The position numbers and the translations under genes are program-made. The notes beneath the pieces are model-generated. The model did not search any database, was not told the origin of the DNA, and worked only from the letters and a program-made list of their open reading frames with translations. Source: a phage. From it: 64,000 nucleotides of DNA. This document shows positions 36,686 to 39,645 of this stretch, one piece after another. Position 1 is the first letter of the stretch. Every line of letters starts with the position of its first letter. The DNA lies in sequence record OZ335961.1; one strand, given 5' to 3'.

Positions 36686-37249
36686 TTATTTACCTAGTTT
36701 AGTTATTATAGCTTCGGCAGCAGCTTTTAGCTTAGATGCGGTGTTAATACGATTTTTAATTTCAGTATACGCATCGCCAAGAACATCAAGGCTATCAGAA
36801 TAAACACTTACACTATTGCGTTCGCTATTTGAAATAGAACCTTTAGTTTTACGATCAAAATCGGTGTACACGTCTTGAAGATCACGGGCTGCCTTCTTTG
36901 CATCATCCAATGCGTCAAGAGCTTTATTTAAAGCATTAACATATTTTTTAGTGTCAAACATATTCTTAGAAATTTTAACAGGTGCACGTTCAGGAGTAGC
37001 TAATGCAGATTTAGGAACCTGAGCGCCAGATGCCAGTTTCTTAGAAATTTTGAAAAATGCTTTATTGAATTTATTTTCTTGACTCATCGTAAAAGAACTA
37101 TTATCGATGTTGTACATTTCAATAGCTTTAGCTTTCCACTTAAGAAAATCGCCGCGGTCTTTTGGGTCTAATTGGAAGAATACTTTAGTAAGATCTGCTT
37201 CAGATGGTAATTTTGCTGCTTCGGTTAAAAATTCGGCATAGGTTTTCAT
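36686..37249 (-). CDS. capsid-targeted internal-protein-like protein (187 aa)
   Basis: N-terminus MKTYAEFLTEAAKLPSE resembles T4 capsid targeting sequence; own terminator downstream. Confidence 0.55.
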   Translation of the reverse strand: MKTYAEFLTEAAKLPSEADLTKVFFQLDPKDRGDFLKWKAKAIEMYNIDNSSFTMSQENKFNKAFFKISKKLASGAQVPKSALATPERAPVKISKNMFDTKKYVNALNKALDALDDAKKAARDLQDVYTDFDRKTKGSISNSERNSVSVYSDSLDVLGDAYTEIKNRINTASKLKAAAEAIITKLGK

Positions 37250-37343: not shown

Positions 37344-37367
37344 AGCCCCAACCTTTTGGTCGGGGCT
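37344..37367 (-). terminator. rho-independent terminator
   Basis: 9-bp stem with AAAA loop followed by U-tract on minus strand. Confidence 0.6.
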
Positions 37368-37374
37368 AAGAATG

Positions 37375-37848
37375 TTATTTGATTTGTTTAGCAGACCAAA
37401 TGCGGTCTTTAATAATTTTTTGGATGTCTTCAACATACTCAAGAGAGTGAACATGTGGATTATCTTTGAAACTATAAGCACGGGCTAACTTTTGGCCTTC
37501 GGTTTTGATTACTAAAAGCTCTTTAAGGATAGCTTCATATTTAGCGATAATTCCTTTAACGATATTTTTTTCTTGTGCAGCTTTAGGATCTGCTTTAGGA
37601 GCAGGTTTACCCGAAGCCTTTGCAAAAGCAGCGCCAGTAGCAACTAGACTTTTCCAGGCCATACTAACTGCATTTCCCGTAAATCCTTCTGCTTTCATGT
37701 CGCGAGCAAATTGGAATCGTGATTCGTCAGAAGCATCTTTATAGGAATATTTACCCGCTGCAATGGCTGCTTTTGCGACAGCTTGAATTTCGGTGCTAGA
37801 TGCTTCATTTAACACCGCTTCATTTAAAAATTGAGCATATGATTTCAT
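37375..37848 (-). CDS. capsid-targeted internal-protein-like protein (157 aa)
   Basis: N-terminus MKSYAQFLNEAVLNE; late promoter TATAAATA upstream and hairpin terminators on both sides. Confidence 0.55.
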   Translation of the reverse strand: MKSYAQFLNEAVLNEASSTEIQAVAKAAIAAGKYSYKDASDESRFQFARDMKAEGFTGNAVSMAWKSLVATGAAFAKASGKPAPKADPKAAQEKNIVKGIIAKYEAILKELLVIKTEGQKLARAYSFKDNPHVHSLEYVEDIQKIIKDRIWSAKQIK

Positions 37849-37888
37849 CTTATTTCCTGTTTTAATTCGTGGATTTAATATACTACTG

Positions 37889-37896
37889 TATTTATA
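37889..37896 (-). promoter_or_regulatory. late promoter (TATAAATA)
   Basis: Exact TATAAATA on minus strand ~40 nt upstream of the 157-aa capsid-targeted protein gene. Confidence 0.55.
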
Positions 37897-37902
37897 CTAA
37901 AA

Positions 37903-37926
37903 AGCCCCAACCTTTCGGCTGGGGCT
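37903..37926 (-). terminator. rho-independent terminator closing the tRNA/stable-RNA transcription unit
   Basis: AGCCCCAGCC-GAAA-GGUUGGGGCU followed by UUUUUAGUAUAAAUA. Confidence 0.65.
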
Positions 37927-37959
37927 AAGCCTTGCGGCAACCTTGTCGGGGTTCCACCT

Positions 37960-38234
37960 GCTAAGGCAAGTGTTTGTACGAAACGCCGGGATTCGAACCC
38001 GGTTATTAAGCAGTTGACGCTACTCAATATTTTTAAAAGGCCATATCTCGACCATATCCGAACGTTCCGTCAAAAACGCTACTCGGCTTACGGCAAAGAT
38101 ATTTCCTCGAATCGATAATTCTGTGCGCCGTTTCAGCTGTGATGTAAGGGGGCATTAACAGATCGTAAAGATTTGTTAATGCCAGTCCTTACCCAGGGAA
38201 CATCAGTCCGACGACTTACCGGTAGCGACCCGGT
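37960..38234 (-). ncRNA. possible small stable RNA(s) / tRNA-like element downstream of tRNA-Arg
   Basis: ORF-free stretch with T-arm-like GGTTCGAATCC (~37981-37994) and a perfect 10-bp hairpin GGCATTAACA...TGTTAATGCC (~38144-38176); position corresponds to T4 stable RNA region. Confidence 0.3.
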
Positions 38235-38310
38235 TTCTTGTTTGGTCGAGGCAGTAGGGATCGAACCTACGACCTAGGACTTAGAAGGTCCTTGCTCTTC
38301 CTTCTGAGCT
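38235..38310 (-). tRNA. tRNA-Arg (anticodon UCU)
   Basis: Hand-folded cloverleaf, perfect 7-bp acceptor stem, GGTTCGATCC T-arm, encoded CCA; coordinates approximate. Confidence 0.7.
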
Positions 38311-38314
38311 ATGC

Positions 38315-38389
38315 CTCGTATTTGGCGGACATGCATGGATTCGAACCATGGACCAATTGATTAACAGTCAACTGCTCTACCACTGAGCT
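38315..38389 (-). tRNA. tRNA-Asn (anticodon GUU)
   Basis: Hand-folded; anticodon loop CUGUUAA; GGTTCGAATCC T-arm; encoded CCA; coordinates approximate. Confidence 0.6.
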
Positions 38390-38394
38390 ACACA

Positions 38395-38480
38395 TCCAAA
38401 TTGGTGGGGAGTGGTGGAGTCGAACCACCCGAGTCGCAATGACAATGGATTTACAGTCCACACCGCTACCTCTACGGGAT
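38395..38480 (-). tRNA. tRNA-Tyr (anticodon GUA), type II with long variable arm
   Basis: Hand-folded; anticodon loop CUGUAAA; long variable arm like bacterial tRNA-Tyr; encoded CCA; coordinates approximate. Confidence 0.55.
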
Positions 38481-38489
38481 AACTCCCCA

Positions 38490-38564
38490 AATTAATTTGG
38501 TGGCCCTGGGTGGAATTGAACCACCGTCTGGCGATTATGAGTCGCTTGCTTGAACCTTCCAGCT
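38490..38564 (-). tRNA. tRNA with CAU anticodon (Ile2 or Met type)
   Basis: Hand-folded; anticodon loop CUCAUAA; encoded CCA; coordinates approximate. Confidence 0.6.
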
Positions 38565-38565
38565 A

Positions 38566-38641
38566 CAGGGCCTTGGTGCTGATTGACGGAATCGAACCGC
38601 CGACCTTCTCATTACAAGTGAGTTGCTCTACCTACTGAGCT
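38566..38641 (-). tRNA. tRNA-Thr (anticodon UGU)
   Basis: Hand-folded; anticodon loop CUUGUAA; 1 nt from neighbouring tRNA; coordinates approximate. Confidence 0.65.
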
Positions 38642-38646
38642 AAATC

Positions 38647-38736
38647 AGCAAAACTGGCGGAGGCGATAGGATTTGAACCTATGAGTCGCCGGAGCGACTG
38701 CCGGTTTTCAAGACCGGTGCATTAAACCACTCTGCC
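38647..38736 (-). tRNA. tRNA-Ser (anticodon UGA), type II
   Basis: Hand-folded; long variable arm; sequence GGAGGCGTGGCAGAGTGG... matches T4 tRNA-Ser as recalled; coordinates approximate. Confidence 0.7.
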
Positions 38737-38750
38737 ACGCCTCCAAATAT

Positions 38751-39401
38751 TTATATATTGTTAATTTGATTTAGAATTCTTTTTGCTTGAGTATGACTTA
38801 CGCCAATATGCTTAGCATATTTAGATAATTCACCGCGCTTAGAAAAATCATATAATTTAGAAATTTCTATTCTTCTTTTTCTTTCATCCGCAGAAACTTT
38901 TGCTTCGTTCGCTTTTGCTATTTTACGTTTAGCTTCTTGAGAATGAGTTTTACCAGCAAAGCCATTCTTCATTAATCCATTTGAAGACCATCCTTTTAAT
39001 TTTCCGTTAGAATGTGCCTTTTTAACACCCAATGAAATTAATTCGCGTTGCTGATCTGTCATAGGATAATTATTTATATGATCCCATCCACCTTCACCGC
39101 CAAGTTTTAAATTATACACATCTGGTCTATTTAAAAACTCTTCTGTAACAATATTTTTCTCGGCTTCAAGCATAGATTCTTTATCATCAAAATACTCTAA
39201 TATTTCTTTAGAGAAATTTTCTATACCATACTTATCTTGGGCTCGTTTTAATAATTTACCAGAACCCATATATCCATCATCTAAATTTTCGGTAGAATGC
39301 ACACCAATATAAATTTTATTATTAATTTTATTTGTTATTTTATAAAGATAAAAATGCATATCAGTCCCTAATAAAGAACTGAGCGTCTCACGACGAGTCA
39401 T
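38751..39401 (-). mobile_element. segB: GIY-YIG homing endonuclease (SegB-like) embedded in tRNA cluster
   Basis: 216-aa ORF; N-terminal GIY-YIG motif FYLYKITNKINNKIYIGVHS...GYMGSG; located between tRNA-Gly and tRNA-Ser. Confidence 0.75.
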
Positions 39402-39405
39402 AAAT

Positions 39406-39479
<74 letters not shown>

Positions 39480-39484
39480 AAATT

Positions 39485-39571
39485 TGGTGCGAGAAGTGGG
39501 ACTCGAACCCACAAGGAAATCATTCCGCAGCATTTTAAGTGCTGTGCCTTTACCAATTTGACCATTCTCGC
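39485..39571 (-). tRNA. tRNA-Leu (anticodon UAA), type II
   Basis: Sequence GCGAGAATGGTCAAATTGGTAAAGGCACAGCACTTAAAATGCTG... matches T4 tRNA-Leu as recalled. Confidence 0.8.
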
Positions 39572-39572
39572 G

Positions 39573-39645
39573 CTGGGAATAAAGGACTCGAACCTTTGCA
39601 TCCTGGAATCAAAATCCAGTGCCTTACCAACTTGGCTAATTCCCA
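39573..39645 (-). tRNA. tRNA-Gln (anticodon UUG); 3' CCA apparently not encoded
   Basis: Starts TGGGAATTAGCCAAGTTGGTAAGGCA...; anticodon loop UUUUGAU; abuts tRNA-Leu (dimeric precursor arrangement). Confidence 0.7.

Follow-up and report, generated by a model that had tools for sequence, protein, structure and literature searches.

The T4 stable RNAs rnaD and rnaC at the end of the tRNA operon of a T4-like phage: rnaC is a conserved tRNA-like RNA

The window analysed here is a stretch of 64,000 nucleotides from sequence record OZ335961.1; it belongs to a T4-like (Tequatrovirus) genome, and the genes at the locus under study lie on the minus strand. Nine tRNA genes occupy positions 38243–39645 of this strand, as judged by ARAGORN and Rfam, and the array is split by a GIY-YIG homing-endonuclease gene; 0.7 kb upstream, there is a SegB-like gene. 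The encoded CCA of the last tRNA, a tRNA-Arg, is followed by one nucleotide and then by the start of rnaD, and the distance from this tRNA to the terminator is ~315 nt. A sequence-only reading of the window had seen no plausible ORF in this stretch, and indeed the longest one, with both strands checked, does not exceed 50 aa. The terminator that it had placed at ~37903–37926 is found there: a hairpin of 10 bp—seven of them G-C pairs—runs from 37926 to 37903 on the minus strand and is followed by TTTTT. The features of the locus, in the direction of transcription, are the following:

38748–38755, minus strand: TATAAATA, T4 late-promoter consensus a few nucleotides upstream of tRNA-Ser (motif match only)
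38243–38318, minus strand: tRNA-Arg (UCU), final tRNA of the array (ARAGORN; Rfam, 68.1 bits; alignment A1)
38121–38241, minus strand: rnaD (species 2 RNA) orthologue, about 119–121 nt (annotated rnaD of RB5 and Aplg8 via alignment A1)
38116–38120, minus strand: spacer between rnaD and rnaC
37977–38115, minus strand: rnaC (species 1 RNA) orthologue, 139 nt, a tRNA-like cloverleaf (identity to annotated rnaC; alignment A1; covariation)
37927–37976, minus strand: conserved 3′ trailer from rnaC to the terminator (invariant in alignment A1)
37898–37926, minus strand: intrinsic terminator of the tRNA/stable-RNA operon, hairpin and T run

The two RNAs are set at a fixed distance: in every examined phage carrying both, the first base of rnaC follows 7 nt after the conserved GGCGCAC of rnaD. 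The 3′ trailer starts with an invariant CAA, folds into a 7-bp hairpin at 37955–37972, and is presumably lost in 3′ maturation. The view of the region as non-coding and structured is borne out by its high conservation in phage records and by low folding z-scores relative to shuffled sequence, namely −4.55 for rnaC (37977–38115), −4.19 for rnaD (38121–38241), and −6.16 for the whole 350 nt. Upstream, the TATAAATA at 38748–38755 is a possible late start for the subcluster running from tRNA-Ser through tRNA-Arg to rnaD and rnaC; the motif occurs 17 times in the window versus 10.8 expected, so that a single site is weak evidence.

By megablast, positions 37880–38260 match 761 phage records at 80–99% identity, 699 of them at 90–99%, and almost all of the matching records are from Tequatrovirus-type coliphages and Shigella or Yersinia phages. 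The records of T4, RB5, Aplg8, and GiZh carry ncRNA features rnaC and rnaD at the aligned positions: the T4 record KJ477684 annotates rnaC as "small, stable RNA; species 1 RNA", and the RB5 record annotates rnaD ("species II RNA") and rnaC. Alignment A1 is free of gaps over the rnaD/rnaC stretch. The rnaC of the window is identical at 139 of 139 positions to the annotated rnaC of RB3, RB10, and Aplg8, differs from that of T4 at two of 139 positions (~98.6% identity), and is at least 99% identical in 491 of the 744 matching records. It shares with T4 rnaC the length of 139 nt and the place after rnaD and before the operon terminator. rnaD is more variable, with 78–99% identity across records (91.6% to RB5 and 88.8% to T4); it shares with T4 an invariant 5′ hairpin and core as well as the place directly after the CCA of tRNA-Arg, whereas the apical hairpin is of the "GGCAUUAACA" version in the window and of the "UUGCGUUAAU" version in T4. 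The upstream tRNA set also differs from that of T4, being of the T2/RB3 type with tRNA-Tyr and tRNA-Asn present and another tRNA-Arg sequence.

As judged by this alignment, the region is thus identified as the orthologues of T4 rnaD and rnaC—an already known entity and routine Tequatrovirus annotation. The sequence-only reading had correctly located the place where T4 encodes its two stable RNAs, since the alignment puts the T4 rnaD and rnaC orthologues there. Its candidate small stable RNA was right in kind, but the region holds two separate RNAs, the known rnaD and rnaC. The idea of a new entity falls away: the alignment shows simply the T4 RNA C/D orthologue, the outcome that had been named beforehand as the refuting one. 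A pattern scan matched 10 T4-like metagenome contigs and, among 185,579 genomes of bacteria and archaea, none; with the stringency used, the element seems to be restricted to phage sequences.

Known since the 1970s, the species 1 and 2 RNAs are products of textbook T4 genes. In T4, a primary transcript of ~1.75 kb is the precursor of eight tRNAs and of the species I and II RNAs, and it ends after species I (PMC2330249). RNAC and RNAD are late RNAs in T4 validated by Northern blot assay, where they are called "RNAs of yet unknown functions" (PMC9697503); a 2010 review likewise gives the biological roles of both as unknown (PMC3014915), and across papers of 2010–2025 no function is reported for either RNA in the 2010, 2022, or 2025 literature. 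Processing of T4 tRNA precursors by RNase P has been described (PMC11143913), and an anti-defence role is reported for the T-even tRNA/segB region (PMC13096335). The sole mutation common to three lines of the T4-like phage BW1 evolved on semi-permissive ECOR34 is an SNP in rnaD (PMC12685909). The expectation that the region is co-transcribed with the tRNAs agrees with the single nucleotide separating it from tRNA-Arg, with the shared terminator, and with the T4 precursor transcript (PMC2330249).

For the structure of rnaC, distinct homologues were gathered from the phage collection, IMG/VR, and metagenomes, and BLAST was then iterated from divergent members. The consensus fold is a four-arm cloverleaf with the arms in tRNA order:

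38108–38114 with 37979–37985, minus strand: acceptor stem, 7 bp (rnaC 2–8/131–137; covariation)
38038–38107, minus strand: long composite arm of ~70 nt in the place of the D arm (rnaC 9–78), apical loop UUGACG at 38068–38073
38004–38029, minus strand: 10-bp arm (rnaC 87–96/103–112), 6-nt loop CGUCAA at 38014–38019
37986–38002, minus strand: T arm (rnaC 114–130), 5-bp stem (114–118/126–130), loop UUCGAAU

The long arm and the 10-bp arm are joined by an 8-nt linker, and one nucleotide separates the 10-bp arm from the T stem. The 3′ strand of the acceptor stem is CGUUUCG (37979–37985) and adjoins the T stem; the acceptor stem holds two invariant U·U mismatches. The T-arm-like element picked out by the sequence-only reading is real (CCGGG/ATTCGAA/CCCGG on the plus strand), but it sits at 37986–38002 and not at ~37981–37994. 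The element had also been described as lacking a matching acceptor stem, which proved wrong: the 7-bp stem formed by 37979–37985 and 38108–38114 directly adjoins the T stem and includes a covarying pair.

A covariation analysis, a check that the sequence-only reading had suggested, supports the rnaC cloverleaf across phages. In alignment A4 (25 sequences), compensatory changes occur in 21 of 53 pairs—compared with a mean of 6.1 ± 1.4 for shuffled alignments and 3–7 for slid controls—and 95.8% of cells are paired. The more diverse alignment A7 (18 sequences) features compensatory changes in 26 of 52 pairs versus a shuffled mean of 12.1 and slid controls of 4–9, with 95.0% of cells paired. Among the 18 sequences, the acceptor pair 4–135 is A-U in seven, G-C in 11, and broken in none, and the third pair of the T stem varies between G-C, U-A, and A-U. 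The canonical T-loop is swapped for UGCAUCC or UGCAUGC in LC53 and L012/L034; hence, full mimicry of the tRNA elbow by rnaC is not conserved. A competing internal acceptor helix, ACGGAACG/CGUUUCGU, underlies both a weak Rfam match to tRNA-Sec and a "tRNA-Met" call in phage id4496. This helix was rejected because it shows no compensatory change and scores worse than all 500 shuffles; one of its pairs is broken in nine of 18 sequences.

The two apical loops of rnaC, UUGACG (38068–38073) and CGUCAA (38014–38019), are perfect complements of each other. Their complementarity is kept in 29 of 29 distinct rnaC sequences examined, with underlying stems that diverged to ~70% identity and covary. In phage P8, the loops are UUGGCG and CGUCAA, turning an A-U pair into G-U, and in two Klebsiella phages they are UUGGCG and CGCCAA, turning it into G-C. 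The loop–loop helix is, hence, 100% paired, and its pair 46–99 is A-U in 15 sequences, G-U in one, and G-C in two. Counted as events, this amounts to one compensatory event in one lineage plus one intermediate, which is supportive but not statistically strong. The complementarity could reflect a kiss within one molecule or a contact between two molecules; the intramolecular kiss would need the long arm to be bent back sharply at its internal loops. Instead, each of the two loops could recognise one strand of some external duplex. Where the loops pair with each other, no anticodon is presented and rnaC cannot decode; whichever loop pairing holds, the arm at the place of the anticodon arm presents no anticodon.

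rnaC is widespread in Tevenvirinae, being found in Tequatrovirus, Mosigvirus (RB69), Karamvirus, Winklervirus, Kanagawavirus, Moonvirus, and Gelderlandvirus, and further copies come from a group of Klebsiella phages (25 records) and one Erwinia phage. Outside the T4/RB69 group, it is found without rnaD and inside tRNA arrays—the latter in at least seven other Tevenvirinae genera—typically with tRNA-Trp and tRNA-Gly as neighbours and with spacers of 5–9 nt as between tRNAs. It is absent from VR5 and CUA3. The acceptor stem is followed on its 3′ side by U-ACA-A in most phages and by U-CCA-A in the Klebsiella phages; by its exact tRNA position, the U-CCA of the latter reads as a discriminator base with an encoded CCA.

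Compared with a canonical tRNA (RF00005), rnaC shares the 7-bp acceptor abutting a 5-bp T stem, the UUCGAAU loop, and the four-arm junction in tRNA order, and in addition the placement and spacing within arrays and—in the Klebsiella-phage copies—the encoded CCA. It differs by lacking a D arm and a 7-nt anticodon loop on a 5-bp stem, by its length of 139 nt, by carrying mostly ACA for CCA, and by the two acceptor U·U mismatches. The scan of the rnaC/rnaD region with RF00005 gave no match even at E ≤ 10 (family threshold 29 bits), and ARAGORN called no tRNA over 37977–38241. rnaC is a tRNA mimic, strongly conserved, with an intact and covarying acceptor stem and T arm, and not a decayed tRNA; the tRNA remnant considered in the sequence-only reading is, for these very features, discarded.

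Known RNA families offer no closer match. In the Rfam scan advised by the sequence-only reading, no family was found for rnaC or rnaD, either at gathering thresholds or at E ≤ 10, so membership of both RNAs rests on homology to annotated genes. The matches returned are at chance level: tRNA-Sec with 16.6 bits (E = 1.3; threshold 47 bits), isrK, and mir-1302. A tmRNA reading was tried and rejected, as ARAGORN made no such call, Rfam gave no tmRNA match at E ≤ 10, and rnaC is without a tag ORF. YrlA likewise gave no Rfam match at E ≤ 10, and rnaC is without its Ro-binding stem. In the TLD of tmRNA and in bacterial YrlA, a mimic of acceptor and T arm recruits tRNA enzymes to a non-decoding RNA, and the 3′ETS-leuZ of E. 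coli is a stable functional RNA excised from a tRNA operon transcript. rnaC is likened to these three by working principle, with no match in sequence or model.

rnaD is built differently, with an invariant core and an exchangeable hairpin:

38218–38234, minus strand: 5′ hairpin, 5 bp with a 7-nt loop
38209–38215 with 38125–38130, minus strand: invariant closing helix (rnaD 27–33/112–117)
38140–38195, minus strand: apical hairpin with a perfect 10-bp stem (38174–38183/38151–38160)

The closing pair of the 5′ hairpin is A-U, G-U, or G-C, and its second pair changes from C-G to U-A in phage W70. The internal loops (GACUGA/GAAA and CCC) are invariant, and the invariant internal-loop sequence includes GUUCCC. 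In the short helix, pair 40–107 is U-A or A-U or, in the phage of the window, U·U, where position 107 is U; in most phages it is U-A. The perfect 10-bp hairpin had been recognised by the sequence-only reading and is real, but lies at 38151–38160/38174–38183 and not at ~38144–38176—its coordinates, like those of the T-arm-like element, being 5–8 nt off. Its arms can be lengthened to 14 nt with 93% complementarity. The 5′ hairpin, pair 40–107, and the apical stem covary; for rnaD in alignment A6 (20 sequences), five pairs show compensatory change versus 3.2 for shuffles and 0–1 for slid controls. The apical hairpin as a whole occurs in at least four unrelated versions that are swapped wholesale among phages with nearly identical flanks, namely the window/T4 type, the CUA3/VR25 type, the TH58/VEc20/P8 type, and the W70 type.

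The Vequintavirinae phage W70 also has a recognisable rnaD core, which starts immediately behind the CCA of a tRNA-Met. VR5 (Dhakavirus) and CUA3 carry rnaD without rnaC, and rnaD there joins the same 3′ trailer directly; rnaD is missing outside Tequatro-, Mosig-, and Dhaka-type phages. Since rnaD occurs without rnaC in some phages and rnaC without rnaD in others, the two are separable cassettes, and since each is missing in some phages, neither can be a universal requirement nor an obligate partner of the other. Three motif readings of rnaD were rejected. For a hammerhead (CUGAUG…GAAAC), the core is CUGAUGU with A9 replaced, no third helix separates the closing stem from CUGAUG, and the Rfam hammerhead model gave no match on the rnaD region at E ≤ 10; for the K-turn and box C/D readings of the core, the motifs are incomplete and no model matched.

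Taken as a whole, the region very probably consists of T4-type rnaD (about 120 nt) and rnaC (139 nt) as units of the tRNA operon that are released by the host tRNA-processing machinery, with rnaC as a tRNA mimic. Identity, placement, secondary structures, loop complementarity, and distribution of the two RNAs are observed here. For T4, the literature reports that both are transcribed together with the tRNAs and accumulate as discrete RNAs, and this would apply to the phage of the window by analogy. In the proposed pathway, rnaD and rnaC would be the last two units of a polycistronic tRNA operon transcript ending at the terminator 37903–37926, and they would be freed by the host tRNA-processing machinery and not via promoters of their own. 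The 7-bp acceptor of rnaC stacked on the 5-bp T arm would serve as the determinant for the RNase P cut at its 5′ end, with an elongated arm standing in for the D arm and the 10-bp arm with its 6-nt loop for the anticodon arm. rnaD would be a tRNA-trailer RNA, beginning immediately behind the CCA of the preceding tRNA and combining an invariant core with a swappable apical hairpin; the RNase P cut at the rnaC 5′ end together with 3′ maturation of the upstream tRNA would also free rnaD. The conserved 3′ trailer would be trimmed off last. Late accumulation may be explained by the TATAAATA upstream of tRNA-Ser, as suggested by the motif match.

As for function, it is tentatively proposed that rnaC, and perhaps rnaD, is a non-decoding tRNA-like decoy or sponge that draws off a tRNA-binding factor of the host, for instance a defence nuclease aimed at tRNAs or an enzyme of processing or modification. 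This idea is preferred because of the tRNA-like design, the location in an anti-defence island (PMC13096335), and the adaptive SNP in rnaD. A more specific version, in which the shape of rnaC is locked by the conserved 6-bp kissing pairing and the swappable hairpin of rnaD sets the specificity—with the two acting, together or separately, as decoys or sponges against host tRNA-directed factors such as anticodon or variable-loop nucleases—is doubtful.

Several other explanations were weighed against the decoy. rnaD, and possibly rnaC, may be a base-pairing regulatory sRNA with the swappable apical hairpin of rnaD as the target-recognition module, which is rather unlikely. The wholesale exchange of this hairpin between otherwise near-identical phages around an invariant core would suit such a role, as would the fact that spacers of E. 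coli tRNA precursors can serve as sRNA sponges (3′ETS-leuZ). Yet the 64-kb window holds no site complementary to the rnaD apical loop with up to three mismatches, matches of the rnaD core elsewhere in the window are marginal and none is convincing, and the variable part of rnaD is mostly closed stem; a duplex of rnaD and rnaC, at −62.6 versus −52.8 ± 5.6 kcal/mol for shuffles, is not unusual. That both RNAs are by-products without function—processed spacer, or what is left of decayed tRNA genes, accumulating solely because of being structured—is improbable. Each RNA is missing from some related phages, no function is reported in the papers of 2010–2025, and classical deletions of the T4 tRNA region are viable on laboratory hosts, all of which would be expected of by-products. 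Such remnants would hardly reach an identity of 99% or more in 491 of 744 phage genomes, as rnaC does, nor keep their structure, again as rnaC does, by compensatory changes over at least eight genera with stems diverged to about 70% identity. The invariance of the loop sequences and of the rnaD internal loop even in a Vequintavirinae phage and the convergent adaptive SNP in rnaD point in the same direction.

A chiefly DNA-level role of the conserved sequence, as a target of the homing endonuclease SegB or as a recombination site, is very unlikely. The T arm of rnaC, GGTTCGAATCC, does match the core GGTTCRANTCC of the SegB recognition site (PMC2330249), and the SegB-like gene is close by; against this, substitutions preserve RNA pairs (G-U and compensatory) over all 139 nt, beyond the T arm, and the RNAs were physically detected in T4. 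A role as SegB site could, hence, only be an added layer and not the main explanation. It is extremely unlikely that the region encodes small proteins, for which ORFs of 40 aa (38033–38155, minus strand) and 50 aa (37875–38027, minus strand) and the one or two "hypothetical proteins" annotated over the rnaD/rnaC locus in many GenBank records could be cited. The 40-aa ORF begins within the variable hairpin of rnaD and extends into rnaC, so that it is not conserved, as rnaC occurs without rnaD in many genera; the substitution pattern is moreover that of RNA-type covariation, and the protein annotations are probably wrong. Hardly credible, finally, is that rnaC is a genuine, if unusually shaped, tRNA that decodes. 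In phage id4496, a 95-nt tRNA-Met is called over rnaC by ARAGORN and by the depositors alike (L007 1546–1640), and the tRNA-Sec match (16.6 bits, E = 1.3) seems to agree with them, but both calls draw on the unsupported internal helix ACGGAACG/CGUUUCGU while covariation is seen for the terminal acceptor stem, the loop of the "anticodon" arm is 6 nt long and pairs with another loop, and the score is far under the gathering thresholds of 47 and 29 bits.

The comparison provides handles for experiments: the rnaC cloverleaf, the loop–loop pairing with its natural variants in Klebsiella phages and the encoded CCA there, the place of rnaC within the tRNA arrays of Tevenvirinae, and the invariant core of rnaD with its swapped hairpin. 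If the more specific decoy idea is true, rnaC and rnaD would be RNA-based anti-defence or host-range determinants in the tRNA island of T-even phages.

Some homologs of the small RNAs rnaC and rnaD carry doubtful annotations. In Enterobacter phage id4496 (record L007, PQ824230), ARAGORN and the deposited annotation agree on a 95-nt tRNA-Met (CAT) at 1546-1640, which covers two-thirds of the rnaC homolog, on its 3' side. According to covariation, the acceptor helix behind this call is not the true one, so the tRNA-Met (CAT) of id4496 is likely a false tRNA. In many other records, rnaC or rnaD lies under "hypothetical protein" labels.

The surroundings of rnaD and of the operon terminator feature the following motifs:

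37344-37367, minus strand: terminator hairpin, AGCCCCGACCAAAAGGTTGGGGCT
37903-37926, minus strand: terminator hairpin of the operon, AGCCCCAGCCGAAAGGTTGGGGCT
37889-37896, minus strand: T4 late-promoter consensus TATAAATA, directly following the operon terminator's T run
38218-38234, plus strand: hairpin and then TTCTTGTTT, scoring as a terminator-like site

The plus-strand site is complementary to the 5' hairpin of rnaD, and its terminator-like score is probably incidental. The two minus-strand hairpins are almost the same and enclose an ORF (37375-37848). This ORF and the adjacent one at 36686-37249 are phrog_2280 paralogs of unknown function with similar N-termini; T4 features e.8 and e.7 at this locus instead. 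The repeated terminators may mediate cassette exchange. The placement of the late-promoter match is suited to driving the phrog_2280 gene downstream.

Further upstream, the tRNA array includes:

38402-38488, minus strand: tRNA-Tyr
38751-39401, minus strand: SegB-like GIY-YIG homing-endonuclease ORF of 216 aa

The N-terminal 117 aa of the SegB-like ORF share 83% identity with T4 SegB, whereas the C-terminal half is unrelated to it. The ORF is flanked by tRNA-Gly and tRNA-Ser, unlike T4 segB, which is located between tRNA-Ile and tRNA-Arg. T4, RB5, and GiZh carry tRNA-Pro at the site occupied by the ORF, and the whole window holds no ortholog of T4 tRNA-Pro. The ORF has the look of a Seg nuclease with a swapped domain, and a tRNA gene seems to have given way to it.

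The tRNA-Tyr only just exceeds the Rfam threshold (30.3 versus 29 bits) because of its long variable arm. In T6, according to a 2026 paper, tRNA-Tyr's variable loop is what the Septu defence system targets, and escape proceeds by segB-driven amplification of this locus (PMC13096335). Rfam places a tRNA just upstream of tRNA-Met in Escherichia phage W70 (record L055, OP778610; 4140-4218): It scores 35.8 bits in Rfam—above threshold—and has an unusually long insert between acceptor and T arm. It is absent from the ARAGORN calls and from the OP778610 annotation.

The T loop of rnaC is not the same in every copy. In Serratia phage LC53 (L006) and two IMG/VR contigs (L012 and L034), UGCAUCC or UGCAUGC stands in place of the canonical UUCGAAU, and the T stem and the remaining rnaC are kept despite this change. 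Such a swap within an otherwise retained RNA indicates that the tRNA-elbow motif of rnaC is, as judged by these copies, dispensable in some lineages.
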